This document shows positions 6,052-42,980 of a stretch of 42,980 nt of DNA, piece by piece (the stretch's first letter is position 1; each line of letters begins with the position of its first letter). The stretch is from Eubacteriales bacterium (lineage in GTDB: Bacteria; Bacillota; Clostridia; Oscillospirales; CAG-272): contig JBGVFW010000281.1 of the NCBI GenBank assembly GCA_045121315.1, positions 1 to 42,980 on the forward strand, read 5' to 3'. Under the pieces are notes generated by a model. It was not told the origin of the DNA. It made no database searches and saw nothing but the letters and a program-made list of their open reading frames with translations. The position numbers and the translations under genes were made by a program.

Positions 6052-6068
6052 GTGGACAAATTGTCCGA
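6052..6068. repeat. Palindrome copy 2, GTGGACAAATTGTCCGA (15/17)
   Basis: Lies between the stop of 5666..6049 and ATG 6079, abutting the SD GAAGGAG. The track's GTG start at 6052 is the palindrome itself. Confidence 0.8.
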
Positions 6069-6078
6069 AGGAGAAAAT

Positions 6079-19113: not shown

Positions 19114-19125
19114 GAGGTTTTTATT

Positions 19126-19970: not shown

Positions 19971-19984
19971 TTCAATATGATAAG

Positions 19985-20017
19985 AAAAGCAGAGCAACAA
20001 AGCTCTGCTTTTCTGTT
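19985..20017 (+). terminator. Rho-independent terminator
   Basis: AAAAGCAGAGC-aacaaa-GCTCTGCTTTT followed by a T-rich tail. Confidence 0.6.
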
Positions 20018-20033
20018 CATTCGGAGGAATGTA

Positions 20034-20810
20034 ATGAAGCGTAAAATATTAGTTTGTATCGCGGTTTTCTTTCTTCTGTTGGGCGCAGCTCTGTTGATTG
20101 TTCCGCGTGTATCAAATTATGTCGGCGTTCAGATAGCCCATCATACCGTAGACGAATTTATCAACCTGAAAGATAATATCGTTGAAGGAACTCGACCAAC
20201 AGAGCAGGAAAAAGAATCTGACGGCGAAAATAGCCGTTCTGAAACAAAAACAAAAACTGTGCTCTACAGAGTTGATATTGACCGGTTGTATCAAGACAGC
20301 GTTGCATACAATGAAATGCTGAAAACAAATCAGAATCATCTGCTGATTGATGAAACATCTTATCTGAATCCTGCGTTGAATCTGTCAGAATACGGAGTTC
20401 CAAATGGTGTATACGGATATGTTGCAGCTCCGTCAATCAATATGGAATTGCCCATCTATTTGGGCGGCAATGATTATAACATGGCGCTCGGCGCAGCACA
20501 CTTGACGTATACTTCGCTGCCGATCGGCGGTAAAAATACTAATAGCGTCTTGTCCGGTCATACCGGATATATCGGGCGAATCTTTTTTGACTATATCAGA
20601 AATCTTAACGTAGGCGACGAGGTAGTTATTGAAAACTACTGGAGTAAGCTGACCTATCAGGTGATAGATAAAAAGATTTATAAAAACTATCAATCTTCTG
20701 CTTGTTATTTGACGGAGGGCAAAGACTTACTGACAATGCTCACTTGTGTTTCGGACGGACAGGGAGGATTTGACAGATACTATGTGATATGTGAAGGAGT
20801 GAAAAAATGA
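20034..20810 (+). CDS. Sortase (class C-like)
   Basis: ATG 20034 with SD GGAGGA. N-terminal TM. INMELPIYLGG, SVLSGHTGY (His), LLTMLTC (Cys), DRYYV (Arg). Confidence 0.8.
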   Translation: MKRKILVCIAVFFLLLGAALLIVPRVSNYVGVQIAHHTVDEFINLKDNIVEGTRPTEQEKESDGENSRSETKTKTVLYRVDIDRLYQDSVAYNEMLKTNQNHLLIDETSYLNPALNLSEYGVPNGVYGYVAAPSINMELPIYLGGNDYNMALGAAHLTYTSLPIGGKNTNSVLSGHTGYIGRIFFDYIRNLNVGDEVVIENYWSKLTYQVIDKKIYKNYQSSACYLTEGKDLLTMLTCVSDGQGGFDRYYVICEGVKK

Positions 20811-21613
20811 ACGCGATACTTCATTGGCATGACGACAGCTTTACTTACCGTAACGCCGTTGTCTTAGACACCGGCTATATTCTCCTTAACGGAGAAAACG
20901 AAGGACTCCAAAGCGGAATATATCGTATCATCAACAATGAAAGGGCTTGTTTCGGAGAATACACCGATCAGATAGAAATCCCCGAACAGCACAAAGCATA
21001 CGATGTGTTCTTTATCAGCGATTACATATTTAAAAAGGGATTTGATTCCGCAGGAATGGAGCAACTCAATTCTTTTGTTCGCGATATAACCTCTCGCGGA
21101 TTTGTTGACCTCAATTATACCCGCGATCGAACCTTATACGTAAGAAACGTTGGACATTCTTATTACAATAAGCTACTGTTTGTTTCAAAAGCTATCCATA
21201 CGCATATAAAGTACATGAGCGACGAAGAAGCAACTGCGCTTATCCATGATTTGTTTGGATTTGAGAAGAAGTTTATTAAGATCATTCACGAAATCGAACA
21301 GGCTGAGATCAATGTCAACACCGGCGAAATCAGAGTCACGGGAGCCATCAATCGCCGTCCGATATTTATTTCCGAAAAATGCTTTTATGTTCGGTTTGAC
21401 ATCAAATGCGGCAACCTTGCTCACAATCAATATGAAGCATATTATTACGACGAGGATTATGTTGATGATGATTACCTTAATGACTTTATCTTTGAATCCT
21501 ATCCTATCTTTACCCCGTTTTGTGATTTGCGCGAAATTCGTTCCTTGCTTGCATATTATGGGTGGGAAGAAATGAAACACAACTTTATAAATGAAAAACA
21601 ACTATTTACATAA
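20807..21613 (+). CDS. Hypothetical protein (268 aa)
   Basis: ATGA overlap with the sortase gene. No family recognised. Confidence 0.55.
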   Translation: MNAILHWHDDSFTYRNAVVLDTGYILLNGENEGLQSGIYRIINNERACFGEYTDQIEIPEQHKAYDVFFISDYIFKKGFDSAGMEQLNSFVRDITSRGFVDLNYTRDRTLYVRNVGHSYYNKLLFVSKAIHTHIKYMSDEEATALIHDLFGFEKKFIKIIHEIEQAEINVNTGEIRVTGAINRRPIFISEKCFYVRFDIKCGNLAHNQYEAYYYDEDYVDDDYLNDFIFESYPIFTPFCDLREIRSLLAYYGWEEMKHNFINEKQLFT

Positions 21614-27351: not shown

Positions 27352-28860
27352 ATGATGAAAAAATACTTCACAAAATCAATCACAATTATTTTGGCGGCTG
27401 TGCTGTTGATTATGATGGCAGTTCCGTTCGCTTCGGCGGCAACCTTACTTAACGAGGATTTGAAGGTTTCCGTTACACTCAACTGCGATAAAGGAGGCTA
27501 CACCTTTGAACTTTTCGAGGTCGCCGCGCTCAAGACCAAAACAGACAGCCCTTACGAAACGTACTATGAGCCGCTTTTTGACGGCATTGCGGACGAAGTA
27601 AAGTCCGGCAAGACCAAAGACATTCTTGCCAAGCTCGATGAAATCTCTCCGGTCAACACCGATATGCCTTCAACTGCAATTTCCTATGGTTATTTTACTT
27701 CTTCTGAGAGCAGCAAAACAAAGACGTTCTCTGATCTCGAGCAGGGCATTTACTACGTCAAGTGCGTTAAGTTTCCTGCGGGCGTAAAGGCTGTTGAAAA
27801 CTCTGTATTTGCTCTGCCTTATTACGAAAACAATTCTTGGGTTTATACGCTCGACCCCATCAATCTTGCAACTAAAGTTGCGGACGATACGCCTACTACA
27901 GTAAAGGAAATTACCAATTCCACAAAGAACAATGTCAATTATACCGACGTTTCCATTGGCGACACCGTAGACTATGCGTTATATAATACTACCGCAGGCT
28001 CTATCGCGTATAAGCTCGAACAGTATACCGTTAAGGACAAAATGAGCAAAGGACTTACCTTTGACAGCAGTTCGGTTAAGGTCTATCTTGCAGACAGCAA
28101 CAAGACAAAGATCGCTGACCTCACAAAAGACACTGATTATAAGCTGAATATTACTTCTCAGGGCGATGGTAAGGACACTGAATTTAACATTGCGCTGACT
28201 AAAACCTATCTCGCAGAGAACGACTTCTACGCAGAAAATGTTGCATATGTGATCGCAACCTATTCAGCTGTTCTCAATAAACACAGCGTTATCGGCGCGG
28301 CAGGAAACCCTAATGACGATATTGAACTTGTCTATGGCAATCAGTCCTCCGTTGACAGTGTTCCCGGAAACCGCGTTTATACTTATACCTACGGTGTTGG
28401 CGTAATGAAGCTCAACGAGAGCGGTACTGCTTTAAGCGGAGCAAAATTTAGTATCTTCAAGACAAACGCTGATGCAGAAGCAAAGCAGAACGCGCTTGGT
28501 ACAGGCGTATCCGGCGCAGATGGTAAAGTTGTTTTCCTTAACGACAAAGAGGAAGAAGTCAAAGTTGCAAGCGGCGATTACTTTATTGCAGAGGTGGAAG
28601 CTCCGGAGGGCTATAACATCTACGGCAAGGTAATTCCTGTCAAGATTGAAGCAACCTACCATGAAGCAATTACCAATGAAACTTGGGTTAAAAACTGCCC
28701 TGCCGACGGTGCGGCGGTTGTAACGGTAACTGACACCAAGCTGATTGTACCGCAGACCGGCGGCTATGTGATGTACCTTTATATCGCAGGCGCTGTTTCC
28801 CTGATTCTCGGCGGCGTTCTTTTCGCTCTGTCCCGCAGAACCAAAAAGACAACTAAATAA
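27352..28860 (+). CDS. Sortase-assembled pilin/fimbrial shaft subunit
   Basis: Signal peptide. E-box-like YFIAEVEAPEGY. Sorting signal VPQTG + TM + RRTKK. Confidence 0.8.
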   Translation: MMKKYFTKSITIILAAVLLIMMAVPFASAATLLNEDLKVSVTLNCDKGGYTFELFEVAALKTKTDSPYETYYEPLFDGIADEVKSGKTKDILAKLDEISPVNTDMPSTAISYGYFTSSESSKTKTFSDLEQGIYYVKCVKFPAGVKAVENSVFALPYYENNSWVYTLDPINLATKVADDTPTTVKEITNSTKNNVNYTDVSIGDTVDYALYNTTAGSIAYKLEQYTVKDKMSKGLTFDSSSVKVYLADSNKTKIADLTKDTDYKLNITSQGDGKDTEFNIALTKTYLAENDFYAENVAYVIATYSAVLNKHSVIGAAGNPNDDIELVYGNQSSVDSVPGNRVYTYTYGVGVMKLNESGTALSGAKFSIFKTNADAEAKQNALGTGVSGADGKVVFLNDKEEEVKVASGDYFIAEVEAPEGYNIYGKVIPVKIEATYHEAITNETWVKNCPADGAAVVTVTDTKLIVPQTGGYVMYLYIAGAVSLILGGVLFALSRRTKKTTK

Positions 28861-28912: not shown

Positions 28913-29773
28913 ATGAAAAAAATAATTATTCTTTCTTTGACACTCATTTTGGCAGGTTTCAGCCTTTTTTGTTTTTGCTATCCGTTTATCAGCAATCTGA
29001 TCAACGAGCATTACAACGAAAGTAAAATCAATGCGTATAACGATAATATAGACACTATTGAACAAAACGAGATCAACTCTTATTTCCATCAAGCAGAAGA
29101 TTACAATCGGCTGCTCGCAACCGATTTTTATGATAAAGCTGCTGAATCCGACGAAAGCTATCGCCGGATCATCAACAGCTATTTTGATATTTTGAATATC
29201 GACAACGGTATAATGGGATATATAGAAATCCCTGCCATTAACGTAAATCTGCCAATTTATCACGGTGAGAGCGAGGAAATACTGACCAAGGGCGCTGCCC
29301 ATCTGGAACGCACTTCCTTTCCAATCGGCGGCAACAGCACTCACGCTTGCATATCGGCACACAGCGGATTCCCGACACAAAAGTTTTTCGACGACATAGA
29401 TGAATTGGAAACAGGCGACACGATAACGATTAAAGTTCTGGATAGAACATTGTTGTACACGGTTTATGCAAACGAAGTGGTTGAGCCGGACGACGCCAGT
29501 AAGCTGCAAGTGATTAGTGGTGAGGATATTTTAACATTAGTGACTTGCTACCCGTATGGAATAAACAGTCACAGATTGCTTGTTCACGCACGGAGAACAC
29601 CGGTTGAAGTCAACAAAGAAGCTACGCATGACAGCACAACTCAGATAGCTGCAAAGCCGGAAAGAAACACCAATCATAAAGCCGTTCTATTTGGCTCTGT
29701 AATCGCCGTTACAGGGACTTTAGCGGTTTTGGGTATAGTTTTATTAAAACGAAAGAAAAACGCAAGGAGATGA
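28913..29773 (+). CDS. Class C (pilus-polymerising) sortase
   Basis: IPAINVNLPIYHGESEEILTKGAAHL, ACISAHSGF (His), LTLVTCYPYGINSHRLLVHARR (Cys/Arg), C-terminal TM + KRKKNARR. Confidence 0.9.
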   Translation: MKKIIILSLTLILAGFSLFCFCYPFISNLINEHYNESKINAYNDNIDTIEQNEINSYFHQAEDYNRLLATDFYDKAAESDESYRRIINSYFDILNIDNGIMGYIEIPAINVNLPIYHGESEEILTKGAAHLERTSFPIGGNSTHACISAHSGFPTQKFFDDIDELETGDTITIKVLDRTLLYTVYANEVVEPDDASKLQVISGEDILTLVTCYPYGINSHRLLVHARRTPVEVNKEATHDSTTQIAAKPERNTNHKAVLFGSVIAVTGTLAVLGIVLLKRKKNARR

Positions 29774-29777
29774 AAAT

Positions 29778-30629
29778 ATGGAGAGTTTGGATAGTTCGGG
29801 CAGGCGGATGTATTCGGTGCTTTTCATAAAGAGCGTCAATCAAACAACCGTTCTGGAAGAATATCAATACGGAGATATGATAGTCAGACTTCCACTTGGA
29901 GCATTGTTGTTTACTGTCGTGGAAGCTGAATTGCAACATACAGAGATCACGCCACCGCATGTTTTGTATGACCTCTATTATCTCTCGGAAGCGGAGAAAA
30001 AGCAGATTGCACGGCTGACAGAATATGTCGTAAAAATCAGTCAGGGAGACGAAGCGTTTGACCGTAGTTCTCTTAAAAACCTTTATTACACTATTCTTCC
30101 TCGCGGTCATGACTTCTGTTATTTGTTTGACAACTCTGAACGATACCGGTTCCGACGGCTGCGTTCAAAGCTGACATTACCATTTGGAAATACCACTGAA
30201 TTCGTTTTCAAAAAGCTCGCCGAAAAGTACGCGAGTTTTTCTTTCTCGGCGCAGACAGAATTTCATACACTGACAGAGTTGTGTGCTCTTTCGCTTTTTG
30301 AAATACTTGAAAGTGGACAAATTGTCCATCGCTGTGAATGTGGCAGATGGTATGTTGCTGAACCTTTGACGAAGGAATGCGATAGCTGTAAAAGGCAAAA
30401 AACAACTGACTATAACAGAAGTTACAGTAAGAGAAAAACCGTGCAGGAGTTCAAAAGAGTCTACAACAAGTTATTCATGCGAACAACACGAAATACGCAA
30501 TCGATCTCTGATACACAACTCTTTGAAGCGTTCAAAAATGAGTGGGCATTGTTAAAGATAAAATATCACAACTCGCCGGATTTTGAACAAAAGAAAATAG
30601 AATTTTTACAATCTGAAAGGTGGAAATAA
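29778..30629 (+). CDS. Hypothetical zinc-ribbon protein, distant relative of 6079..6792 / 6818..7531
   Basis: LSLFEILESGQIVHRCECGRWYV...CDSCKRQ aligns with ILFYEIIKANRK...IIRCKRCNRIFA...YC...C. A helical basic C-terminal half follows, as in the pair. Confidence 0.6.
   Translation: MESLDSSGRRMYSVLFIKSVNQTTVLEEYQYGDMIVRLPLGALLFTVVEAELQHTEITPPHVLYDLYYLSEAEKKQIARLTEYVVKISQGDEAFDRSSLKNLYYTILPRGHDFCYLFDNSERYRFRRLRSKLTLPFGNTTEFVFKKLAEKYASFSFSAQTEFHTLTELCALSLFEILESGQIVHRCECGRWYVAEPLTKECDSCKRQKTTDYNRSYSKRKTVQEFKRVYNKLFMRTTRNTQSISDTQLFEAFKNEWALLKIKYHNSPDFEQKKIEFLQSERWK
30313..30329. repeat. Palindrome copy 16, GTGGACAAATTGTCCAT (16/17)
   Basis: Inside ORF 29778..30629, read as SGQIVH immediately before the zinc ribbon. 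Confidence 0.85.
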
Positions 30630-32248: not shown

Positions 32249-32365
32249 AAACGCCGCAACCAACAGAGAAAAGAAAAATACAAATTTGAGGATTTTGCAA
32301 AATGAAAACAGCAAAATCGATTTTGTAAAACTCGCTTTTACGGCTGAGCGCAGTGATTATTTTTT

Positions 32366-32493
32366 GATTTCGGTTTTGCCGAAATCGGGGTTTTAGGGTT
32401 TCTCCCTAACGAGCGAATTTGTATATCACTTTGATATACAAATTCTATGCTCGCAACCCCCAAATCGCAAGCGATTTTTAGGGGGTTAACCCC
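32366..32493. other. Candidate oriT region (cluster of inverted repeats upstream of mobC-relaxase)
   Basis: GATTTCGG-ttttg-CCGAAATC (32366-32386). Perfect 13-bp inverted repeat GAATTTGTATATC-acttt-GATATACAAATTC (32415-32445). CCCCCAAATCGC / GCGATTTTTAGGGGG (32457-32485). No nic site identified. Confidence 0.5.
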
Positions 32494-32537
32494 TTACAGA
32501 AAAAAGAGAAAAAAATCACTCCTTCACGGAGGTCAAA

Positions 32538-32978
32538 ATGGAACGAGAGAGAAAAACCGAAAAATTATTATTAAGACTCACACCGACGGAAAAAAGAAAT
32601 ATCGATTATCACGCCCAACTGATGAATGTGTCGGTCAACCAATATATCTCATTGTTAATTCGCAGAAAGAGAATTGTGATTTGCGAGAATATTCCCGAAT
32701 TGATTTACCAAATTCAAAAAATCGGAAATAACATCAATCAAATCGCGGCTGTCGCGAACACAAATCAATATATTTCAATCAACAATGTTTCAGAGGTCGA
32801 GCGGTTAATGAAAGAATGCTACAATCTGCTGAACGGTTTTATAGATTTCATTTCCGAACCCGAAAAAAACTATTTACAAAACGATACGTCAAAAATATCC
32901 GATCAGCTTGAAAGTATATTTTCCTCCATTCAAATGATAAATAAGCAAATTGCAGAAATCAGAGAACAAAACGGATAG
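32538..32978 (+). CDS. mobC: MobC-family relaxosome accessory protein
   Basis: RHH-like LRLTPTEKRNIDYHAQLMNVSVNQYI and IGNNINQIAAVAN motif. SD GGAGG. Confidence 0.85.
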   Translation: MERERKTEKLLLRLTPTEKRNIDYHAQLMNVSVNQYISLLIRRKRIVICENIPELIYQIQKIGNNINQIAAVANTNQYISINNVSEVERLMKECYNLLNGFIDFISEPEKNYLQNDTSKISDQLESIFSSIQMINKQIAEIREQNG

Positions 32979-32987
32979 CGTGATACT

Positions 32988-34793
32988 ATGGCAATCGTAA
33001 AAACCATTTCACCGAAAATCAAAACACAGGCGCATTTATGCGAAGCGCTCGCCTATATTACCCAAGAGAAAAAAGCAAGCTCCGTCTATTATTACCGGTG
33101 CCGGAATTATGACGGTATTGAACAGGTTGCGCGGGATTTTCAATCCACAAGGATTGCCTGTAACCAAAACAAAGGTATTCTTGCTTCTCACATTTGTCAA
33201 TCATTTTCTCCAGAGGATAAAGTCACACCTGAGCTTGCTCATAAAATGGGTATTGCAATGATAAAACGCTGTTTCCCTGATTATCAAGTAGTCTTAGCAA
33301 CTCACGCAGACAGAGAACATATTCACAATCATTTTATTCTTAATTCCGTAAGCGTCTTAGATGGCAAAAAATTTTATGAAAACAAATCCACACTTCGACA
33401 AATCCGAAAAGTCTCAGACGAACTTTGTTACAAAAATGATTTAAGCGTTATCGAAAGTGATAACGTGACAAAGTACGCTCCGCTTGACCAAGCGACGTTA
33501 AATGCCGCCAAGCGAGGGCATAGTTGGAAACTGCGATTAGTGAAAGATTTGGATAAGGCGCTTGAAGATTGTCAAAGCAAAAATGAATTCATCAATTATT
33601 TTCAAACGCACGGTTATGAAATCAAATTTACAAATAAAAACATTACGTTCAGAAAAAACGGAGAGAAAAAAGGAATCCGCGCCGATACGTTAGCCAAACA
33701 ATTCGGTCAAAAGTATTCTAAGGCAAGCATTGAAAAAAGACTGAACATTTCAAATTCAGAAAACATAAATCCGAAAGCGCACAATTCAGAATCAAGCGGC
33801 AGAAAATTTCAAATACCAAGTTACGATTACTACAATCAGCTCGCTGCGATTAATTGGAAACGGTATGAAAAGAAATATGCTGATAAAATCCGCGTAACTG
33901 ACAAACGGCTCGGCAGTCCCAACCTTTTCACAAAAAATCCTTTCCTGTTTTCGCTTCGGCTGATTAGATTCATTCTTAATCAAAAAAACAAAAACCGCTA
34001 TAACCAAAAGAGAAGAATTAAATCTTATTCGACCACTTATCAGGCTCGGTCTTTTGTTGATTACAAGCGCGGCAAAAAGATTTTGGAAAATGTTCCGTAC
34101 AAAGAAATCGTCAATACCTTTGGCGAAAGCGTTCAGATCAAATTGTACGCGTGGCAGATCACACACTTGATAAATAATAATATTCTTCTTTCAAGTCGTA
34201 TTGATTTGAAAACGGGTACGGCGGTTGTCACATTGAAACAATCAGACCTTCCGAGAGTGTCTGCAATTCTCGGTGTTCCTTGTGAAAACTTTATGGCACA
34301 AGCGGAACAAATGAAAAACAGAAGAATAACCGCCGAACTAAAAAAGAAGAATCTGAAACTGAGCTATCTTTTAATTTCTCCGGAACAGGCAGCAGCACTG
34401 CGAGAGCATTGTATTACATTTGCAAGTTATCCAAAAGGCGACAAGCTCAATGTCGCTTTTGCACCGGAGGATAAAGAAAAAGTCCTGAATGTCCTTTATC
34501 CCAACAGAGAAGAAAAGAAAGTGAACAAGGAAACATTCTTCAAGCGTAACGCGATAATTAACCAAAAGCTCAAACGGATTTCTTCTGAAACAGGCGAAAA
34601 GCTCTGTTACAAAATTGTATTGTCAAATCAATATAAATTGCTTAGAACAACCACATTGGAATTTGCTGTGTTCCGAACGGACGACGGTAAGTACAATGTG
34701 GTTTTTTTAGAATCACAAAAAGCTGCTATTGAAAAAGCGTTAGGAGCCTTTACTCCAAAAGCACCTAACGCCAATCAAAATATGAAATTGTAA
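32988..34793 (+). CDS. Relaxase (MobA/VirD2-type relaxase/mobilisation nuclease domain)
   Basis: His triad ATHADREHIHNHFILNSV. 601 aa. The C-terminal third contains three roughly 45-aa repeats. Confidence 0.9.
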   Translation: MAIVKTISPKIKTQAHLCEALAYITQEKKASSVYYYRCRNYDGIEQVARDFQSTRIACNQNKGILASHICQSFSPEDKVTPELAHKMGIAMIKRCFPDYQVVLATHADREHIHNHFILNSVSVLDGKKFYENKSTLRQIRKVSDELCYKNDLSVIESDNVTKYAPLDQATLNAAKRGHSWKLRLVKDLDKALEDCQSKNEFINYFQTHGYEIKFTNKNITFRKNGEKKGIRADTLAKQFGQKYSKASIEKRLNISNSENINPKAHNSESSGRKFQIPSYDYYNQLAAINWKRYEKKYADKIRVTDKRLGSPNLFTKNPFLFSLRLIRFILNQKNKNRYNQKRRIKSYSTTYQARSFVDYKRGKKILENVPYKEIVNTFGESVQIKLYAWQITHLINNNILLSSRIDLKTGTAVVTLKQSDLPRVSAILGVPCENFMAQAEQMKNRRITAELKKKNLKLSYLLISPEQAAALREHCITFASYPKGDKLNVAFAPEDKEKVLNVLYPNREEKKVNKETFFKRNAIINQKLKRISSETGEKLCYKIVLSNQYKLLRTTTLEFAVFRTDDGKYNVVFLESQKAAIEKALGAFTPKAPNANQNMKL

Positions 34794-34805
34794 GGTGGTG
34801 AAAAT

Positions 34806-34922
34806 ATGAACGAGAAGTCTTTTGAAAAAGAAATGGGTGTAACGTTTTCGGACAGCCTTCCGAACGGACAGCCGGAAGAAGAAATAATCTTTGATTGGAA
34901 CGGAGAGGAACTGAGTGAGTAA
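34806..34922 (+). CDS. Possible small acidic ORF (38 aa), below the track cutoff
   Basis: ATG 34806 with SD AAGGTGG 7-8 nt upstream. Encodes MNEKSFEKEMGVTFSDSLPNGQPEEEIIFDWNGEELSE. Overlaps the ArdC-like start. Confidence 0.3.
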   Translation: MNEKSFEKEMGVTFSDSLPNGQPEEEIIFDWNGEELSE

Positions 34923-36069
34923 GCTGAATAAAATGCGCGAGCAGATAGCCAATCAATTTATCGCTGCGCTGCAACAAGAAAGAATCCCGTGGCACCAAGA
35001 TTGGCAGGATACTTCCATGCCGCGCAATGCTGTAACCGGTAGAAGTTACAGAGGACTCAACTATTTTTGGTTAGCCATCATTTCACTGGACAGAGGGTAT
35101 CACGATCCGCGTTGGTGCACCTTTAATCAGGCTAAAGACAAAGGATGGAAAATTCGCAAAGGTGAGAAGGGTACGCGCGTTGAGTTTTGGACAATGTATG
35201 ATGTCAAAACCAAGAAGAAGCTCACGCCTTCTCAGGTACAGAAGCTGAGAGATACACTTGATCCGGTTGATTTTCACGACCGGATAAAGCCGATCTCCAA
35301 TGTGTTTACCGTTTTTAACGCGGCGCAGATCGACGGTATTACCGAACTTAAAGAGCAGCCACGCCAGAGGTTCAGCACAGCAGAGCTTATTGAAGCGCGT
35401 GACACGTTGTTAAAAAACATGGAGTTGGGCTTTCAAGAAGGTGGAAACAGTGCCTGTTACCGTCCGTCCGGCGATTACATTCGTATGCCACAGATAGAAA
35501 TGTTTGACGGTGCGTATAGCTATATGTCAACCTTCCTGCATGAAGCCGGACACGCTACGGGCGCAGCGAAACGTCTGAACCGTAATCTGTCTGGCGGTTT
35601 TGGAAGCGAGAGCTATGCCAAAGAAGAACTCAGAGCAGAAATCGCGTCAGCGTTCACAGCATGTGCGACCGGCATAAACTATGAGCAGTCACCTACAATG
35701 GAAAACCATGCTGCTTACATTCAGAACTGGATAAAGGTGTTGCAGGACAATCCCAACGAGCTTTTCGCGGCGATTAAAGACGCGGAGAAAATTTCCGATT
35801 ATCTCTTGGAAAAGGGCGAGTTTATCGTCAATGAACCGCCGGAACTTGACAACTCAGAGATTGATGCCGTGGAGCCAACAGAAGAAGGGTTTCACTACCG
35901 TGAAATATCTTTTGAGGATTTTAACAAACTGCGTGATGCAGGCTTTGATGTTGCAAGTAACTGCCGTCAGAGTACAAATCAGCCGGATATAGTTATTCTC
36001 CGATACACCGAACAGCAGTCAGCAGAGATAAATGCTGTTCTGCAACCGGTTAATGCTATGAAACGATAG
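34915..36069 (+). CDS. ardC: ArdC-like protein (ssDNA-binding N-domain + zincin metalloprotease domain)
   Basis: N-terminus QFIAALQQERIPWHQDW...RGLNYFWL and HExxH FLHEAGHATG. The start may be ATG 34933 rather than GTG 34915. Confidence 0.85.
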   Translation: MSKLNKMREQIANQFIAALQQERIPWHQDWQDTSMPRNAVTGRSYRGLNYFWLAIISLDRGYHDPRWCTFNQAKDKGWKIRKGEKGTRVEFWTMYDVKTKKKLTPSQVQKLRDTLDPVDFHDRIKPISNVFTVFNAAQIDGITELKEQPRQRFSTAELIEARDTLLKNMELGFQEGGNSACYRPSGDYIRMPQIEMFDGAYSYMSTFLHEAGHATGAAKRLNRNLSGGFGSESYAKEELRAEIASAFTACATGINYEQSPTMENHAAYIQNWIKVLQDNPNELFAAIKDAEKISDYLLEKGEFIVNEPPELDNSEIDAVEPTEEGFHYREISFEDFNKLRDAGFDVASNCRQSTNQPDIVILRYTEQQSAEINAVLQPVNAMKR

Positions 36070-36363: not shown

Positions 36364-36639
36364 TCAAAAATCAAGGTCGGAATGTGTACCGGTACGGATA
36401 AGGAGTAAAATCAGCTCGTCTTTTTGAATCTCATACACTAACAACCAATCCGGCTCAATGTGACATTCGCGGCAACCAACATAGTTGCCCGTCAGAGCGT
36501 GATCACGGTTTTTTGGCGGTAAGGCAATTCCGTTGGCGAGCTGTTCGACAACTGACCATAGCTTTTCCTCGTCATAACCGCGTTTGGAGATTTGCTTCAA
36601 ATCCTTTTTGAATCTATTATGAACTCTAATTTTCAGCAT
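36364..36639 (-). CDS. yafQ: YafQ-family (RelE/ParE superfamily) type II toxin
   Basis: KNRDHALTGNYVGCRECHIEPDWLLVYEI...RTGTHSDL closely follows the YafQ pattern. Confidence 0.9.
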   Translation of the reverse strand: MLKIRVHNRFKKDLKQISKRGYDEEKLWSVVEQLANGIALPPKNRDHALTGNYVGCRECHIEPDWLLVYEIQKDELILLLIRTGTHSDLDF

Positions 36640-36892
36640 GAAGCGCCTCTCTCAACTCAGCCACGGAATTGTAGGGTTCACTTAAATTGATTCCGTTATG
36701 TGCTTCAAAAATAGCTTGTTCGGTTTCCGCATTATATCTTGACTGACGAACCATAAACGGAATACCTCCAAATGCAATAGCCTGACGCAAAAATATATTC
36801 ATTGCCGTACTCATGTCCAATCCGAGAGAAGCAAAAAGCTCCTGTGCCTGTGTTTTGACTTCATCGTCTACTCGAATATTTATATTCGCCAT
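36626..36892 (-). CDS. dinJ: DinJ/RelB-family antitoxin
   Basis: Start at ATG 36892 (SD AAAGGAG). MANINIRVDDEVKTQAQELFASLGLDMSTAMNIFLRQ. Overlaps the toxin start. Confidence 0.85.
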   Translation of the reverse strand: MANINIRVDDEVKTQAQELFASLGLDMSTAMNIFLRQAIAFGGIPFMVRQSRYNAETEQAIFEAHNGINLSEPYNSVAELREALHAEN

Positions 36893-36914
36893 ATTAGCAT
36901 CTCCTTTCATCATT

Positions 36915-36943
36915 ATTATATCACGATATGTGCACAATGTCAA
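36915..36943 (-). promoter_or_regulatory. Consensus promoter of dinJ-yafQ
   Basis: On the minus strand: TTGACA, 17 nt, TATAAT. Confidence 0.6.
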
Positions 36944-36972
36944 CACAATAAACATATTGATATTCTGTTTCA

Positions 36973-36989
36973 GTGGACAAATTGTCCGC
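36973..36989. repeat. Palindrome copy 17, GTGGACAAATTGTCCGC (16/17)
   Basis: Lies 29 nt upstream of the -35 of the dinJ-yafQ promoter, in the divergent region before the giant ORF. Confidence 0.85.
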
Positions 36990-37076
36990 TTTTTCTTTTT
37001 TCAGAGGTGAGTCCAATGTAGAGAAAAAACAATCATTTGGAAACAATTATTCATGAATTTAAGGAGAACTGTACCT

Positions 37077-40000
37077 ATGAATGAAAAATACCTTAAATTA
37101 ACAAAACAATTCAACGATACCGTTTCTCAGCTCTCTCAATCGCCTGCTGAGTTTAACCGGTTCTTGAGGGTAGCTGCTTTTAATTATCGCTTGACCTTTC
37201 AAAATGCTGTCTTGGCATACGCGCAAGACACCGGTTCTGATTTGCTGCTGACTTATGAACAGTGGCAATCGTACAGACGGGTTCCAAAAAGGCATACAAA
37301 AGCGACTTTACTTTTTGATGTCAACCACCGTGGAAGATATGTTGTGACGTTTCCAATGTCGCGAACGGTTGTGGACAAACGCATCCACCGTTACAGAGAG
37401 CTGCGTCTCTTTGATTACAGAAATGATGCTGCGGTTGTGGAAGCTCTGAAAGCTGTCTTTCAGACGGACGCGGATAATCTGGCTGAGATCCTCTATGCCG
37501 AAAATCTCAAGAGATTTGAGAGTAATTTTGACGAAGCATATCCGGCGTTTGAGAATGAGACTGATTTTTTGGCTAAAGCAGTTACCAATATGCTTATGTG
37601 CCGTTTCGGAGAAGAAATGCCTTATAAGACCTTTTCTTTCTCTGATGGTATCAACAGGGATAATATCGAGCACATCTATCAAATGGTGATTGATGTTTTT
37701 CGCGCAGAGTATGCCGAAATTGTGACCGCTCTCCCTGCCGAGTTGGAAAAAGCGCGTGAGCAAAAGGAAGATAATGACCTGTCTTTTGATGTCACAGGCA
37801 AACAGGACGTTATCAGTCTTTTCAAAGAAAAAACCAACGAGCTTTTTCACAGCATAGACGGTCTATCCCCTTCTGAAATTGAGCAGATAGTCAGAGAGTA
37901 TGCCGAAAGCATATTTGCCGAAAACGAGATTTCAGCAGAGATTGTCGGAATAGCTGTCAGCGGTTCCCGTTGCCGCGCTTTAGAACACAACGGCTCCGAT
38001 TTGGACGTTGTGATTGAGGTGCAGTCGGATACAAAGGAAACAGCTCTTTTCAATCTGCTTAATGAGCACGCTTTTGAAATCGGCGGCGTTCGGGTTGATA
38101 TTAACCCGATTAAGGCTGATGAAACAGGAACGCTCAGCGAGTATTTGCCTACAGTGGAAAAATATTTGAATCAAATAGAAATCCTTGATTATGGCAAATA
38201 TATCATTGACAGCAGCTCGGTGTTTCATGCAAAAAGAGGAAGTATCTACACCATACCGATTGATACTTCTCCTAATCTTCGGCGCAGGCTTGAAAAAGTC
38301 GGGCTTGTACCAAGAGACGAAATGACAGACGTTGTGTTTGAAAGCGATAACGGTTCTTGGAATAAACTGATTATCCCCGACCGCTACGGCAACAAAACCA
38401 ACAGCATTGATATTTCCGACGTTTTATCACAAGGAGAAATGTCTGTTGCACAAAAGATACTGAACGATGTTATCGAGCGCGAACAGTCGATTGAAAAAGC
38501 GAAACAAAACATAAACAAAGATGATATTGAAATACTTCAAACATTAGAGCCGAGAAAAAGCGTCTTGAATTTCTCTCAGGACGAGCTTGCGCGGACTTCT
38601 GTCTGGAGTGAACGGTTTGCGGCTGACATAGGCAAAAAATCGCCGTTTTACAGATCAGAAAACGGCGAGTGGCGTGACCGCGATGAAAGTAAGAGCCAAA
38701 TCATAACAGTCGAAGCTGTTGAGACGGATTTTCAGAGTGTCCGTAATGACATTAAGGCTCAGAAAATCAAGAGAGGAATAACCGTAAATAAAGATACGCT
38801 TTGGAGTATTCAGATAAGTCGCAAGGGGCTTGAAGATAGTGTAAAATATGGCTTTAATCATAAAAACGGAAACATTTACAGTCTATTGTATGCTATTCAA
38901 AATATTGTTGCCAATAGCGTTCTTTTGGATAGTAATATTTCTGAAAATAACAATAACAATAAAGCCTATAACACGGCGTTCATGCACAAGCTCTACGCTA
39001 TTTGCAGAATCGGCGACCAACCTGTTTTGGCAAAGCTGACCGTAGAAGAATTTCTTGACGGCAAAGGCTCTACGCTAAAGAGAATGTACAATCTGCAAGA
39101 CATAAAAACGGAACCGCTCAGGCACATAGAGTTCACTGATAATCAGTTAGCTCGCTCAGTCCTGAACGGTTCTGAAATAAGTGTAGCAGATTTATTCAGG
39201 GTTGTCAAGGCGTTAGATAAAGACTTTTATCTAAACAAACAGCCGCATGAACAAGCAAAGGTGTTTCAGGTTATCACCAATGCAGGCGATGACGGCGGCT
39301 ACGATGAAAAACCGGAACACGGCACTCTTGATGAAGCGATTCAGGCAGGAAATCAGTATATAGCCGACGGTTATATTGGTTTTAGTGTTTACAATGAGGA
39401 GACGAAGCGGATTGAGTATGTTTCCGGTCAATTTGACGTAGAGAGCGCTTATTCCGCTGAAATCCTCGAAATCAATCAAATACCGGTTCCGTCTGATTTG
39501 AATAATCAGTATGTGCAAGGTGATACCAATTTTAATATTTTTGATGAAGAAGCTGAAAGAAAAAAATATCCGTTTTTTGGACACAGCGAAATAGTCAATG
39601 AAATGTTATCGGCTACACCTTATCTCAAAGCTAATCTTGACGAGATTCGTGCGTACTTTGAATCGGAAACAGATGCGGTTGTCAGACAACAGTATATCCG
39701 TGGTGTTTTCAACGATGATTTTTCCGAAGTAATTCTATCTGATGGAACACGCGTAGGATATAAAACCTATGAAAACGGATTGCTGATTTGGAAAGGTCGC
39801 TATCCAAATCGTGAAGGACAGCGTTTTTTGCATTGGGACAACGTTGTGGGACATTTTGATGCTATGCGTATGCTCGGAATGTTACACAATGGTGCTTTTG
39901 CAAATGATATGCATAATGGGCAGCTGACGTTGGTGCAAGGCATAAACGACGAACCTGAGAAAGCGTTTACTTTTTCTCAGGAAGTAATCGACAAGGCTCT

Positions 40001-42980
40001 GATACGCGGCAGCGGTATAGAAAGCGGAAAATTCAGAATCTATGAGCAATTTCAAAAAGGTTTGTCAGCAAAAGAAAATATCACTTTTCTGAAAAATGAG
40101 TATGGCATTGGCGGTTGTTCAGAAATCATTCCCTATACCGGTATCGCAGAAGATCATAACGGTCAGGGAATCCTTCTGCGGCTTGGTTATCAAGAAAACT
40201 CACCGCGTCAGCAATTGACTTGGAAGCAAGTTGAAAAACGAATTGGTGAGCTGATACAAAACGCTCTTTATCTTAATCAATCGGAAAAAGAACACTATCC
40301 TGATTGGCTGAAACAACAGGAACAGCGCAGAGCTGAACTGAAATCAGAGCGTGAATTAAGAGATGCTGTATATCAGCCGTCTGAGCCAACAAAAGCTGCT
40401 TACAGTCCGACAATGCAGGAATATTTCAAGGTAAAGGGCGAAAACCCTGACAGTATTATTCTGTTCCAGATTGGCGCGTTTTATGAAGCAATGGGAGACG
40501 ACGCAAAAGTAGTGTCCGAAGCGCTCGAATTGATTGTTACTAGCCGCCGTTTGTTAGGCGACGAAGGCATAGAAATGTGCGGCTTTCCTGAAAACCGACT
40601 GGAAACAAACCTGAATATGCTCCTTGACAGAGGTTATTCAGTTGGTGTTTCAAGTGTTGATGAAAACGGCAACCGTTCTTTTATCCTGATGGTATCAGAT
40701 AGGGCGCATGAGCCGATAAATTCAGAGCCGGTAGGCAGGATTGATTATCTGACTGCGGAAGGTGAGCTTGATCGCTCAATCGAGTACACCAATCCCACAA
40801 TGCTTGAAAAGGATATAAAGGAAGAAAGTACCTATGATGTAAAAATGGCAGTCTATCTCTATCGTGATAAAGACGGTAGGGTTATGCAGCATGATTTTAT
40901 TGATAGGTTGCCAAATCCCTTGCAGCACTTTGAGATTATCGACAAACCTGCTTCACAGTCTGAGCATGACGTTCTTTTGAATCGGGCGCAGGAGCTGATA
41001 AGTGAGTACATGGACGCAGAATTTGGCAGTGATAATGACGAACCGTATGAACTCCCGGAAGATATTTCTGACGTTAATCTGGCGTATACAACTACCGAAG
41101 ATGAACAGCATGAAATTACTGCTGACGCAAACCTCGTCGATTTCCGTATCGAAACGAAAATTGACGGCAAGGTCGTCCGAACAGAGCAGTATGACTCTTT
41201 ACTGGATATGGTGGAAAACGGTCTGGACGGATTGAGGTTTGACGACCTTGTGTATGTCAGCGATGAAGAACTGGCACCGTTCTATGATGAACCAACAGAG
41301 GAAAAAAACGACGTGCTTCCTGCTGAAAAGCCTTCATTGAAGCTGACGCAGGAAGATATTGACAGTCTGATCATTCAGCGCGCAACCACTGCCAACGCAA
41401 AGCTGCGTGCTTTTCATGCGGTACACGGCGGTGAGAGCGACGACACAATTATTAGCATTCTCAGAGAGGGATACAGTCAAAACGGCAAGACAATAAGATC
41501 GGACAGCGGAATGCCATTGTATATCAGCTGTGACTTTAGAGGAATCTTTGTAGGAGACTTTGAGAATCGTTTTACACCTGTGCTTCTGACCTATCATCAA
41601 CTGTTACAGCGTATCAAGGAACTTACGCTTACCAATCGCTATCTTTCAGATTCGGAGTATTTGGCGTATGCGGAGGAATATCGTCTCTTTGATAAAGCCG
41701 AAAGACTGAGAGAAGTGAATTTTCAATATAGTGCCGGAGATACCATCTATCTCAGCGGACAGCCGTATATCATTTCTGATTTGAGCGGTGACACTGTAAC
41801 GGTTTACCAACCGGATGCGCCGTTGTTTGTTCATAACTATGACCGTGCGGAGTTTGAAGCGCTGCTGCTGCAAAATATTGACGACAATATGCAGCTTGTT
41901 GTCAAGCCGCAAACGCATTATGAGATCTATCAGCTTGTCGATTCAGAAAGAACGGATAAATACATGTTTTTATCCTTAAAAGCGCTTGAAGATTCTCATC
42001 TTACTATTGAGCGTTCCAACTATACCTTAGTGTATACAGGAACTCTTGGGGAGAGCGAAAACATTGATTCTCTGTATGAGCGTTTTAACATTCATGCTCC
42101 ATCTGACTTCTATGGTTATTCAATGTCGGTTTCTGATGTTGTAGTGCTCACAAGAAATGATGTGAGCGTGGCTTACTATTGTGACGACGTAGGCTTCACC
42201 GAAATTCCGGGATTTATGACTTACGAGCGCATAAGGGACTATGTGTTGTTTCATCCGCAGGAGCGCACCGTTTCATGGATTTATTTCAATCCTGATGGCA
42301 ATCTTGGGAATGGACAAATTGTCCACGAATTTATTTCCGTAGACGAACTGGCAAGCCGTATTGATTCGTTGACGAGAGACGAGTTGCCGGATTATTTTTC
42401 AGATTTCGGAACGCAGCAAGTGTATGACATTGAGAATCCTGAATGGTATACAACCGAGTATGACCAATACGCCAATGAACAGCCTGCCGGTTTGAGAATG
42501 GTTTGGAATTCACACATGTCAGATGAAAACTACGAAGCCTTTAAGGATATTGTCAAGGAATTTCAGCAGGCTTCAAAAGTTTATCAAGCGCCGCAAGTTG
42601 TTATCAATTTTTCGGAGCACCCTGCACTGTATCAAATTTCTCATGAAAAAACAAGACTCAGTTTTACCTATGCGAACGAGCTGCTTGGCAGACTGGATAT
42701 GTTGGAGAATGCCAAACGCGAAAATCCTGCGGCTGGTTTCTACTACAAAACCGATTACACCGTTTATGGTTCTGAAGACGGAATAAATCTTGTTCGTCTG
42801 AACGGACGATATGACCTTGCCGATGGTGAAACAAATCTGGTCGGTCATATTGAACGTGTCAGAAAAGCAGAAAGCGGCGAAAACGCAGAGACGTTAAGCG
42901 CTTGGCTGTCTATGTTGCAGGACAGCATTGAGAGCAATCCTTTGACAGAAGCGGAAAAGAATGAGATTGACCAGATAGTG
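37077..42980 (+). CDS. Giant multidomain 'polyvalent' protein, 3'-partial (at least 1968 codons, runs off the window)
   Basis: Not in the supplied ORF track because no stop is reached. The frame is open from the stop at 37008-37010 to nt 42980. ATG 37077 follows SD AAGGAG (alternative ATG 37053). Domains recognised by eye are an ArdC-N-like domain (about 37150-37320), a Pol-beta-type nucleotidyltransferase VSGSRCRALEHNGSDLDVVIEV (about 37860-38170), a MutS domain-I-like segment MQEYFKVKGENPDSIILFQIGAFYEAMGDDA...MCGFPE (about 40409-40700), and a YodL-like domain (about 41915-42215). Confidence 0.85.
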   Translation, partial: MNEKYLKLTKQFNDTVSQLSQSPAEFNRFLRVAAFNYRLTFQNAVLAYAQDTGSDLLLTYEQWQSYRRVPKRHTKATLLFDVNHRGRYVVTFPMSRTVVDKRIHRYRELRLFDYRNDAAVVEALKAVFQTDADNLAEILYAENLKRFESNFDEAYPAFENETDFLAKAVTNMLMCRFGEEMPYKTFSFSDGINRDNIEHIYQMVIDVFRAEYAEIVTALPAELEKAREQKEDNDLSFDVTGKQDVISLFKEKTNELFHSIDGLSPSEIEQIVREYAESIFAENEISAEIVGIAVSGSRCRALEHNGSDLDVVIEVQSDTKETALFNLLNEHAFEIGGVRVDINPIKADETGTLSEYLPTVEKYLNQIEILDYGKYIIDSSSVFHAKRGSIYTIPIDTSPNLRRRLEKVGLVPRDEMTDVVFESDNGSWNKLIIPDRYGNKTNSIDISDVLSQGEMSVAQKILNDVIEREQSIEKAKQNINKDDIEILQTLEPRKSVLNFSQDELARTSVWSERFAADIGKKSPFYRSENGEWRDRDESKSQIITVEAVETDFQSVRNDIKAQKIKRGITVNKDTLWSIQISRKGLEDSVKYGFNHKNGNIYSLLYAIQNIVANSVLLDSNISENNNNNKAYNTAFMHKLYAICRIGDQPVLAKLTVEEFLDGKGSTLKRMYNLQDIKTEPLRHIEFTDNQLARSVLNGSEISVADLFRVVKALDKDFYLNKQPHEQAKVFQVITNAGDDGGYDEKPEHGTLDEAIQAGNQYIADGYIGFSVYNEETKRIEYVSGQFDVESAYSAEILEINQIPVPSDLNNQYVQGDTNFNIFDEEAERKKYPFFGHSEIVNEMLSATPYLKANLDEIRAYFESETDAVVRQQYIRGVFNDDFSEVILSDGTRVGYKTYENGLLIWKGRYPNREGQRFLHWDNVVGHFDAMRMLGMLHNGAFANDMHNGQLTLVQGINDEPEKAFTFSQEVIDKALIRGSGIESGKFRIYEQFQKGLSAKENITFLKNEYGIGGCSEIIPYTGIAEDHNGQGILLRLGYQENSPRQQLTWKQVEKRIGELIQNALYLNQSEKEHYPDWLKQQEQRRAELKSERELRDAVYQPSEPTKAAYSPTMQEYFKVKGENPDSIILFQIGAFYEAMGDDAKVVSEALELIVTSRRLLGDEGIEMCGFPENRLETNLNMLLDRGYSVGVSSVDENGNRSFILMVSDRAHEPINSEPVGRIDYLTAEGELDRSIEYTNPTMLEKDIKEESTYDVKMAVYLYRDKDGRVMQHDFIDRLPNPLQHFEIIDKPASQSEHDVLLNRAQELISEYMDAEFGSDNDEPYELPEDISDVNLAYTTTEDEQHEITADANLVDFRIETKIDGKVVRTEQYDSLLDMVENGLDGLRFDDLVYVSDEELAPFYDEPTEEKNDVLPAEKPSLKLTQEDIDSLIIQRATTANAKLRAFHAVHGGESDDTIISILREGYSQNGKTIRSDSGMPLYISCDFRGIFVGDFENRFTPVLLTYHQLLQRIKELTLTNRYLSDSEYLAYAEEYRLFDKAERLREVNFQYSAGDTIYLSGQPYIISDLSGDTVTVYQPDAPLFVHNYDRAEFEALLLQNIDDNMQLVVKPQTHYEIYQLVDSERTDKYMFLSLKALEDSHLTIERSNYTLVYTGTLGESENIDSLYERFNIHAPSDFYGYSMSVSDVVVLTRNDVSVAYYCDDVGFTEIPGFMTYERIRDYVLFHPQERTVSWIYFNPDGNLGNGQIVHEFISVDELASRIDSLTRDELPDYFSDFGTQQVYDIENPEWYTTEYDQYANEQPAGLRMVWNSHMSDENYEAFKDIVKEFQQASKVYQAPQVVINFSEHPALYQISHEKTRLSFTYANELLGRLDMLENAKRENPAAGFYYKTDYTVYGSEDGINLVRLNGRYDLADGETNLVGHIERVRKAESGENAETLSAWLSMLQDSIESNPLTEAEKNEIDQIV
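42310..42326. repeat. Palindrome copy 18, ATGGACAAATTGTCCAC (16/17)
   Basis: Inside the giant ORF, read as NGQIVH. Confidence 0.85.

Follow-up and report, generated by a model that had tools for sequence, protein, structure and literature searches.

What does the long open frame at the 3' end of this contig encode, is it a single gene, and what might its product do for the element that carries it? The window, by which we mean the whole analysed stretch of 42,980 nucleotides, ends inside this frame. The nearest stop upstream of ATG 37077 lies at 37008–37010 and is followed by 1,968 stop-free codons counted from the ATG, the final one ending at base 42980, in agreement with an earlier sequence-only reading that had reported an uninterrupted frame from this ATG to the window end. 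That reading had also described the five other frames as broken, and stop counts from 36000 on bear this out (125 and 212 in the remaining plus frames; 65, 118, and 117 in the minus frames). The start at ATG 37077 is sound, given the AAGGAG located 10 nt upstream and the opening residues MNEKYLKL, which also begin eight relatives (P0001–P0008). For the giant gene, a promoter scan of the plus strand revealed no sigma-70-like site, counts being not above those of shuffled sequence. Circular continuation of the ORF at window position 1 was rejected: frame 1 is open there, but its product is an unrelated membrane-anchored Big_2 protein, which shows no BLAST similarity to the C-termini of the relatives.

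Coding evidence came from a Ruminococcus MAG contig (L003) that is about 95% identical, aligning to the window ORF in three blocks at 94–97% nucleotide identity. The 139 differences counted over 2,596 nt fall at codon positions 1, 2, and 3 in the proportions 32/14/93, and the codon changes comprise 76 synonymous and 51 nonsynonymous ones. Moreover, four of the minus-strand ORFs were compared with L003, where stop codons interrupt two of them. Because of the third-position bias and of these stops, the plus frame is the coding one and the minus-strand ORFs are shadows, as had been proposed. We conclude from these comparisons that the giant ORF is a real gene under purifying selection. Its modules and neighbors are listed in table 1.

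Table 1. Features of the giant gene and its upstream neighbors (positions in the window; aa, residues of the giant protein)
Feature	Residues	Position	Strand	Basis
MobC/NikA, 5' of relaxase		32538–32978		
MobA/VirD2-type relaxase		32988..34793	+	
Genuine ArdC gene (ArdcN + MPTase-PolyVal), directly upstream; syntenic in relatives		34915..36069	+	
YafQ/RelB toxin–antitoxin pair, between ArdC and giant gene		36364..36955	−	
Giant gene (putative polyvalent protein), 5' 5.9 kb, 1,968 codons		37077..42980	+	open at window end
Divergent ArdC-N-like ssDNA-binding "header" (predicted)	aa 1–112	37077..37412	+	profile homology, fold model
Helical bundle conserved jointly with head	aa 113–240	37413..37796	+	relatives, fold model
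Minimal Pol-beta-fold nucleotidyltransferase (G296-S297, D308-x-D310, D341)	aa 245–375	37809..38201	+	family profile, residues
Module common to 5 relatives	aa 376–560	38202..38756	+	relatives alignment
LPD3 (PF18798)	aa 562–663	38760..39065	+	Pfam 46.0 bits vs cutoff 27
Small module common to 8 relatives	aa 725–805	39249..39491	+	relatives alignment
888 nt (296 codons) missing in L003; two-sub-domain dyad	aa ~826–930, ~963–1075	39497..40384	+	alignment to L003
Repeat module copy 1 (PHROG 38613)	aa 963–1075	39963..40301	+	repeat comparison, no Pfam model
MutS domain I (PF01624), F1135-Y-E1137	aa 1108–1193	40398..40655	+	Pfam, PDB, E. coli alignment
Module common to 29 relatives	aa 1215–1415	40719..41321	+	relatives alignment
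Repeat module copy 2 (degenerate subtype)	aa 1420–1530	41334..41666	+	repeat comparison
YodL-like (PF14191)	aa 1615–1713	41919..42215	+	Pfam E 1.9e-26, 93.4 bits vs cutoff 24
LPD25 (PF18840)	aa 1838–1930	42588..42866	+	Pfam 57.1 bits vs cutoff 27

The sequence-only reading had recognized four modules by eye, and the four motif strings are indeed found in the translation, at residues 36–71, 296–315, 1113–1171, and 1615–1707. The first, called ArdC N-domain-like, holds at the superfamily level. The head of the protein has no direct Pfam hit, ArdcN (PF08401, gathering cutoff 22.6 bits) being absent at E ≤ 1, and ArdcN is found below threshold in three of 16 head-family members (best E 0.008). An HMM of the head family nevertheless matches 77 of the 77 Pfam-certified PF08401 proteins, inside their ArdcN envelopes (domain E-values of 1e-8 to 1e-15 in a database of 332 sequences). 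The AF2 model of the head (pLDDT 88) has the strand order expected for helices plus a nested beta-hairpin, and Foldseek against the PDB ranks the R388 ArdC structures 6i89 and 6sna first and second (probabilities 0.93 and 0.85), with a best E of only 6.6e-3 and a TM of 0.30; the Rad4 BHD comes next (probability 0.60). The head search returned 7,468 clusters, and almost all of the top matches align from residue 1, which corresponds to the "header" position that Iyer et al. describe for ArdC-N. On the other hand, BLASTP detected no similarity between the head and the genuine ArdC next door, a profile built from the window's own ArdC-N recovered only its two orthologs, and the head profile gave no relevant match among PDB sequences. 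On the profile and fold comparisons we regard the head as a divergent ArdC-N, despite its failing Pfam's own threshold. The layout is not that of an ArdC protein, since Pfam finds no MPTase-PolyVal in the 1,968 residues. The helical bundle that follows matches nothing in Pfam or PDB sequences.

For the nucleotidyltransferase, PF01909 scores 16.0 bits in the window copy (E 0.016), under the Pfam cutoff of 21, whereas the same module passes it in P0002 (22.4), P0035 (22.5), and P0017 (27.7). It is carried by 111 of the 126 retrieved relatives, and the five residues given in table 1 are invariant among 19 sequences. Against the PDB, seven of the eight matches of the family profile at E ≤ 1 are nucleotidyltransferases (best E 8e-4), namely minimal nucleotidyltransferases, MNT/MntA, and cGAS-like CdnE. 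The family profile and the invariant residues thus uphold the Pol-beta-fold call and support the view that the module is real, with its predicted catalytic residues intact.

The MutS domain I and YodL-like assignments are confirmed above the Pfam gathering cutoffs. MutS_I reaches 71.5 bits (E 8e-20; cutoff 20.6), with MutS itself matched in the PDB at E 1e-10, and aligns without gaps to residues 9–92 of Escherichia coli MutS at 36% identity. F1135 and E1137 correspond to F36 and E38 of the E. coli protein, and this Phe-x-Glu is invariant across 20 copies. MutS beyond domain I is absent: the NCBIfam MutS model, whose equivalog cutoff is 480 bits, scores 71 and matches only over profile positions 2–84 of 793. 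LPD3, LPD25, and an internal repeat module had not been noticed in the sequence-only reading, nor had the genuine ArdC gene just upstream or the predicted DarB-like methylase–helicase beyond the window end. Altogether, domain assignments with a function cover about half of the visible 1,968 residues.

The remainder of the protein can be approached through L003, which extends it by about 1,680 residues carrying N6_Mtase, ResIII, SNF2, and Helicase_C domains, that is, an N6-adenine methylase and an SNF2 helicase. Some 90% of this continuation aligns with phage "DarB-like antirestriction" proteins (34–38% identity, 760–1,440 bits), and darB of P7 is 26% identical to it. A gamma-class N6-adenine methyltransferase and an SNF2/DEAH helicase in one polypeptide also occur in P0001 and P0002. 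Intact relatives of 2,480–3,437 residues are found on independent contigs, some clusters on dozens of them. By analogy with L003, the methylase–helicase of the giant protein would lie beyond the window end, and the full protein is predicted to have about 3,600–3,650 residues, of which the window would encode the N-terminal 54%.

The surroundings are those of a conjugative element. The order SSB-G5-MobC-relaxase-ArdC-TA-giant gene-T4CP/VirB6/PrgI/VirB4 is kept in two related loci (L001 and L002), the T4CP, VirB6-like, PrgI, and VirB4 genes being located 3' of the giant gene in the syntenic L002, and YoeB/YefM fills the slot of YafQ/RelB in relatives. An inverted-repeat cluster at 32290–32520 lies upstream of mobC. 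When searched against plasmids, the giant ORF gave no match by megablast and only fragmentary ones by tblastn (coverage ≤ 18%). The DNA at the best tblastn matches bears no annotation other than "TnpV protein" labels, which reach just its edge and were set aside as uninformative.

Polyvalent proteins of conjugative elements were described by Iyer et al. (2017, J Bacteriol 199:e00245-17; PMC5512222), who reported MutS-I, YodL, Pol-beta nucleotidyltransferase, LPD25, and the LPD36-MTase-SF2 dyad in those of Firmicutes elements; in about 80% of cases, MutS-I was accompanied by ArdC-N. Members of the class combine two to fifteen distinct effector-type domains in one polypeptide and are encoded beside conjugative transfer genes. 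We count at least seven different modules in the visible 1,968 residues; relaxase, MobC, and ArdC are found upstream of the giant gene and T4SS genes downstream of it in L002. The domain set and these surroundings support its identification as a probable polyvalent protein of a conjugative element in the sense of Iyer et al. (2017), as the sequence-only reading had suggested. It shares with that class the ArdC-N header, the NTase, MutS-I, YodL, LPD25, and LPD3 modules, the T4SS/relaxase vicinity, extensive module shuffling among orthologs and, as seen in L003, the C-terminal MTase-SF2 helicase dyad. It departs from the class in that its head is too divergent for PF08401, the MPTase resides on the separate upstream ArdC gene, and a two- to three-copy module without Pfam model is added along with several other segments lacking a domain assignment. 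The class and the domain combinations were already published in 2017 (PMC5512222), and the giant protein adds a further member.

Likenesses to better-known systems are partial. The N-terminal ~110 residues resemble ArdC of pSa/R388 (PDB 6I89, 6SNA) in modeled fold and profile homology, but no zincin metallopeptidase follows the head and the protein is not an ArdC ortholog. Domain I with its Phe-x-Glu is shared with the mismatch-repair ATPase MutS, whereas the connector, clamp, and ATPase domains are lacking. In the L003 continuation, N6-adenine methylase and SNF2 helicase are combined as in DarB of phages P1 and P7. DarB is packaged in the phage head; the giant gene, in contrast, adjoins conjugation genes, and its product bears ~2,000 additional residues of other modules at the N-terminus, the dyad itself falling outside the window. 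Finally, M.EcoGIX and M.BceJIII are plasmid-borne, single-strand-specific orphan m6A methylases, which, according to Fomenkov et al. (2020; PMC7736820), block restriction and so aid pESBL in becoming established in new hosts. They come from Gram-negative plasmids, differ in architecture, and serve as a functional precedent by analogy only.

We favor, with a probability of roughly 0.75, a reading in which the window encodes the N-terminal 54% of a polyvalent protein of ~3,650 residues that belongs to a sortase-pilus/T4SS conjugative element, carried by a rumen or gut Ruminococcus, and protects incoming DNA. On the model of Iyer et al. (2017), and with P1 DarB, ArdC, and M.EcoGIX as precedents, the protein would act when the element enters a new cell, being either passed through the T4SS together with the DNA or made early in the recipient. 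Its ArdC-N and MutS-I modules may keep it attached to the DNA as this arrives in single-stranded or partly duplex form; the helicase-driven methylase would then modify that DNA in cis and so shield it from the restriction enzymes of the recipient, while the NTase, YodL, and LPD modules would act on other recipient targets. Anti-defence islands combining darB, MTase, TA, and SSB genes have been described (PMC11541004). Pfam detects within the 1,968 residues no metallopeptidase able to cut the protein into pieces; a candidate idea is that the metallopeptidase of the neighboring ArdC does so in trans, releasing working parts. In canonical MOBP/MOBQ layouts, the region downstream of the relaxase and in the same orientation enters the recipient late. 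The giant gene is so placed, and its presumed late entry does not fit early leading-region expression.

A helper role in establishment or replication is a less probable alternative that deserves some weight. With its ssDNA-binding head, its MutS-I module, and its SNF2 translocase, the protein would then aid complementary-strand synthesis, the handling of hairpins and mismatches, and T-strand recircularisation, and methylation would mark the DNA of the element for its own replication control. Such a role would suit an element that encodes its own SSB, Topo III, and DUF3991/Toprim primase, the more so as, in the related polyvalent proteins P0011, P0015, and P0018, this set of NTase, YodL, and LPD25 is joined to Toprim/DUF3991 primase modules and as M.EcoGIX activity is coupled to the replication mode (PMC7736820). 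However, the methylase–helicase dyad is homologous over its full length to phage DarB-like antirestriction proteins, and, in the manner of anti-defence islands, the giant gene has a TA pair and a genuine ArdC gene as neighbors. The kinship with DarB also bears on whether the protein might instead be part of a host-protective defence or exclusion system, in which a methylase and an SNF2 helicase, as in DISARM, BREX, or type I/III R-M, would act against phages or rival plasmids; we consider this improbable. The C-terminal part in L003 does give partial PADLOC matches to mad2, DrmD, BrxH, ZorD, and MTase_I, but these involve generic motifs only (20–54 bits; for example, 155 of 1,040 DrmD profile positions) and are far shorter than the DarB-like matches, and the part in the window matches just two weak NTase-like PDC-S09 models. 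No nuclease or partner genes lie nearby in the window, L001, or L002, and membership in DISARM, BREX, or Zorya was rejected for want of full-length matches and partner genes.

An artefactual origin, be it through pseudogene decay, chimeric assembly, or mere in-frame read-through across several genes, appears highly improbable. The truncation of the ORF by the window end and the whole-module insertions and deletions among relatives could be seen in this light, but the absence of stops over 1,968 codons, the third-position location of 93 of the 139 substitutions, the intact relatives on independent contigs, and a module indel of 888 nt exactly in frame all argue against it.

Giant polyvalent proteins are encoded by some of the largest genes of Gram-positive conjugative elements, and to our knowledge none from Clostridia has yet been studied by experiment. 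The present locus leaves the current picture of their build and presumed role unchanged. It does offer a well-delimited example, with a domain map, a full-length surrogate, conserved neighbors, and a near-identical relative from which a module is naturally deleted in frame, and may as such guide domain-deletion mating work.

This deletion concerns the repeat module, a ~110-residue alpha/beta unit without Pfam model, of which there are two clear copies (aa 963–1075 and 1420–1530) and one distant copy (aa ~826–930). Copy 1 displays the motifs GK-x-RI, FLK-x-EYG-x-GG, and W-x-x-V-x-x-RI-x-x-LI. The distant copy and copy 1 make up the dyad lacking in L003, a block bordered by an 8-bp direct repeat, CCGTCTGA, whose absence keeps the reading frame exactly. 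No Pfam match to the dyad region (aa 806–1100) was obtained in any of 19 members. A likeness to DegV (E 0.014 in PDB sequences) was treated as chance, and one to sliding clamps (Foldseek vs PDB; TM ~0.1, probability ≤ 0.25) as noise caused by the repetition of the alpha/beta layout. The module also stands alone as small proteins in phages and bacterial genomes, and a homolog search with its profile retrieved short unannotated proteins only. Tentatively, it might represent a novel domain, with an effector or DNA-binding role, that is peculiar to mobile elements; being recurrent, it deserves a family definition. Relatives of the giant protein differ by gain and loss of whole modules, and the in-frame loss of this one between ~95%-identical elements would, if the proposed role is correct, represent module-by-module turnover driven by the defence repertoire of recipients. 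Elsewhere in the alignment with L003, nucleotides 38673–38936, in the LPD3 area, form a divergent patch.

The frame of the giant ORF, last interrupted by a stop codon at 37008-37010 in a six-frame stop scan, runs from ATG 37077 through 1,968 codons without a stop, the window's final base (42980) completing a codon. The same stretch contains 125 and 212 stops in the other two plus frames and 65 to 118 in the minus frames. The sequence-only reading of one open frame among five broken ones thus stands, as does its remark that this ORF is missing from the ORF track, which is only because the frame runs off the window end. An AAGGAG motif lies 10 nt upstream of the ATG, and ATG 37077 is the right start because eight independent relatives also begin with MNEKYLKL. 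Between the giant ORF and its ~95% identical relative, locus L003, we counted 139 substitutions over 2,596 nt (32, 14, and 93 at codon positions 1, 2, and 3), with 76 synonymous and 51 nonsynonymous codon changes, and two of the four overlapping minus-strand ORFs tested have internal stops in L003. This codon-position bias and these stops indicate that the plus frame is coding and under purifying selection and that the minus-strand ORFs are, as had been proposed, shadows. We also considered that the frame might continue at window position 1, as in a closed circle. Frame 1 is open and in phase there but belongs to a different gene, because the product of ORF 1-1230, which runs in from the left window edge, is a Big_2 surface protein with a membrane anchor that resembles none of the giant protein's relatives.

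By using Pfam gathering cutoffs as the criterion, four domains were certified in the giant protein: LPD3 (aa 562-663, E 7e-12), MutS_I (aa 1111-1193, E 8.4e-20), YodL (aa 1615-1713, E 1.9e-26), and LPD25 (aa 1838-1930, E 2.9e-15). YodL and MutS-I had been read by eye, and LPD3 and LPD25 are additions. The MutS-I domain matches solved MutS structures (E 1e-10) and aligns without gaps to residues 9-92 of Escherichia coli MutS (36% identity), so that F1135-Y-E1137 falls on the mismatch-contacting motif F36-x-E38; the Phe and Glu are invariant in 20/20 aligned polyvalent copies. The likeness is confined to domain I, as the protein reaches 71 of the 480 bits required by the NCBIfam MutS model and is not a MutS proper. 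The proposed Pol-beta-fold nucleotidyltransferase (NTase) is below the Pfam cutoff in this copy (16.0 vs. 21 bits) and is upheld by its family: the 130-aa module occurs in 111 of 126 retrieved relatives and exceeds the cutoff in P0002, P0035, and P0017, and G296-S297, D308-x-D310, and D341 are invariant. Nucleotidyltransferases account for seven of the eight PDB matches of a 19-sequence profile at E <= 1 (9xbd best, E 8e-4, then 2rff, MNT, CdnE, MntA, and 1wot).

The N-terminal head (aa 1-112), read as ArdC-N, was the weakest of the four original domain calls. It has no Pfam match in the giant protein, no BLAST similarity to the neighboring ArdC, and, as a sequence profile, no match in the PDB. 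Nevertheless, an HMM of the head matches 77/77 Pfam-certified ArdcN proteins in the set (domain E 1e-8 to 1e-15), within their ArdcN envelopes, and ArdcN is the only Pfam family recurring, below threshold, among head-family members (3/16). In an AlphaFold2 model of aa 1-240 (pLDDT 88, pTM 0.84), helices precede a small beta-hairpin unit; of the 350,542 PDB chains compared with it, the R388 ArdC crystal structures rank first and second (probabilities 0.93 and 0.85), and the Rad4 BHD, a known remote relative of ArdC-N, is also matched (0.60), all with marginal E-values (best 6.6e-3). The head is thus a divergent ArdC-N. In an exhaustive library, 7,468 clusters belong to its family at E <= 1e-3, and nearly all of the best 150 align from residue 1 onward. 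The giant protein itself cannot be called an ArdC, because Pfam finds no metallopeptidase domain in its 1,968 residues; the metallopeptidase is encoded by the separate ArdC gene next to it.

A ~110-aa module is present twice, at aa 963-1075 (PHROG 38613) and aa 1420-1530 (29% identity, pairwise E 8e-6), and phmmer gives cross-copy matches for it in the protein relatives P0001, P0002, and P0005, with common motifs in the alignment. Both hhalign (72% probability, E 3.4e-5) and a model of aa 806-1100 (pLDDT 82), in which two subdomains have one layout of helices, a four-strand meander, and a helix, suggest a third, distant copy at aa ~826-930. The module has neither a Pfam model nor a credible relative among solved structures. 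It resembles small stand-alone phage proteins (BFVD A0A8S5SC87, probability 1.00, TMt 0.75; Bacillus phage BCD7 J9PUE2, probability 0.99), and long bacterial contigs encode short proteins consisting of it alone. The unassigned segments 113-240, 376-560, 725-805, 1215-1415, 1535-1612, and 1715-1838 also recur in relatives.

L003 aligns with the window in three blocks of 94-97% nucleotide identity, and its frame runs 1,680 aa beyond the point matching the window end. This continuation contains N6_Mtase, ResIII, SNF2-related, and Helicase_C domains and resembles phage "DarB-like antirestriction" proteins over ~90% of its length (34-38% identity) and phage P7 darB (26%). P0001 (2,908 aa) and P0002 (3,437 aa), both ~64% identical to the window protein, have C-termini like that of L003; because all three continue into this methylase-helicase end, a full length of ~3,650 aa is predicted. 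Relatives have a common head and differing downstream modules: the NTase is missing from P0001 and LPD25 from P0002, and MutS-I occurs twice in both P0005 and P0006. Absent from L003 is an in-frame stretch of exactly 296 codons (888 nt), window nt 39497-40384, bordered by an 8-bp direct repeat (CCGTCTGA). Because this module is present at the same site in P0001 and P0002, which are more distant, the difference is most simply explained by a microhomology-mediated in-frame deletion of a two-module unit in the L003 lineage. Within LPD3, a stretch of 264 nt (38673-38936) gives no blastn alignment with L003, whereas its flanks are 95-97% identical, which points to a short replacement by recombination.

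The window belongs to a Gram-positive conjugative element, with genes for Topo III, a DUF3991/Toprim primase, a Rep-like HTH protein, a zeta toxin, a tyrosine integrase, ParA/ParB, SSB, a G5 protein, MobC/NikA, and a MobA/VirD2 relaxase, in addition to those in the table. The order SSB, G5, MobC, relaxase, ArdC, small ORF, toxin-antitoxin (TA) pair, giant gene is the same in the two closest full-length relatives. These have YoeB/YefM in exactly the slot of YafQ/RelB, indicating that the TA cassette was swapped. In locus L002, genes for T4CP, a VirB6-like protein, PrgI, VirB4, and Big_2 come after the giant gene; because a Big_2 ORF also lies at the window's left edge, the window may be a circular element from which ~5 kb of giant gene and ~10 kb of T4SS genes are missing where its two ends would meet.

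Coordinates of selected genes of the element
Feature	Position	Strand	Remark
ArdC	34915-36069		genuine (ArdcN + MPTase-PolyVal)
YafQ-type toxin/RelB antitoxin pair	36364-36955	minus	between ArdC and giant gene
DUF6076 proteins	6052-6792, 6818-7531, 29778-30629		three paralogues, two in tandem
Adhesin, 1,546 aa	22702-27342		ten SpaA repeats and thioester domain
Backbone pilin and two sortases	27352-28860, 28913-29773, 19977-20810		beside the adhesin

ArdC is an ssDNA-binding protein that shields transferred DNA, and DarB of P1 protects DNA in cis from type I restriction. Every named domain of the giant protein, their co-occurrence, and the conjugative context have already been described (Iyer et al. 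2017; PMC5512222), and in the class tests run the protein qualified as a polyvalent protein of a conjugative element, as first read. Modestly new are the very divergent ArdC-N head, whose large family is often subthreshold for Pfam ArdcN, the multicopy module, the placement of the metallopeptidase beside rather than within the giant gene, and the recent in-frame module loss in L003. The same authors proposed that polyvalent proteins are linked to the transferred strand by ArdC-N as a header, and that distinct ssDNA features are recognized by MutS-I (PMC5512222); orphan methylases of plasmids, such as M.EcoGIX, are reported to help plasmid establishment by blocking restriction (PMC7736820).

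Beyond the observed domain content, conserved catalytic and contact residues, neighborhood, and selection on the frame, the most likely model, by analogy, is that of a DNA-tethered, helicase-driven adenine methylase protecting the incoming element. The protein would be tethered to the element's DNA and its methylase would shield it, while the accessory modules (NTase, YodL, LPDs, and the repeat module) would have other targets in the recipient. The position of the gene, downstream of the relaxase and in the same orientation, argues against early expression from the leading region, a problem that T4SS delivery of the protein itself would sidestep. A role in replication or establishment is possible and compatible with this protection model. 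A defense-system role is unlikely, since the PADLOC matches are partial and at motif level only, and the protein did not qualify as a member of a known defense system. The selection signal in the frame and the many intact relatives rule out that the ORF is an artefact.

Other features of the element were recorded. A candidate oriT is the inverted-repeat cluster at 32290-32520, directly upstream of mobC/relaxase, in which one pair of 14 nt (32415-32445) is perfect. G+C is 0.46-0.49 in the ArdC gene (34800-35800) and 0.36-0.40 in the adjoining relaxase; given this difference, the ArdC gene may have been acquired separately. The YafQ/RelB pair has a perfect TTGACA-17-TATAAT promoter (TG-extended; 36943-36915), and between this divergent operon and the giant gene, ~90 nt upstream of the latter's start, an 8-bp-stem hairpin followed by a T-run (36972-36990) could be a terminator or an operator. 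In locus L001, a TnpX-like large serine recombinase and TnpV (18902-21324) follow the giant gene instead of T4SS genes, which suggests a transposon insertion or rearrangement at this junction. The closest DNA relative comes from a Ruminococcus sp. MAG from roe-deer rumen. The sortase-assembled pilus or adhesin carried by the element presumably serves mating-pair formation.
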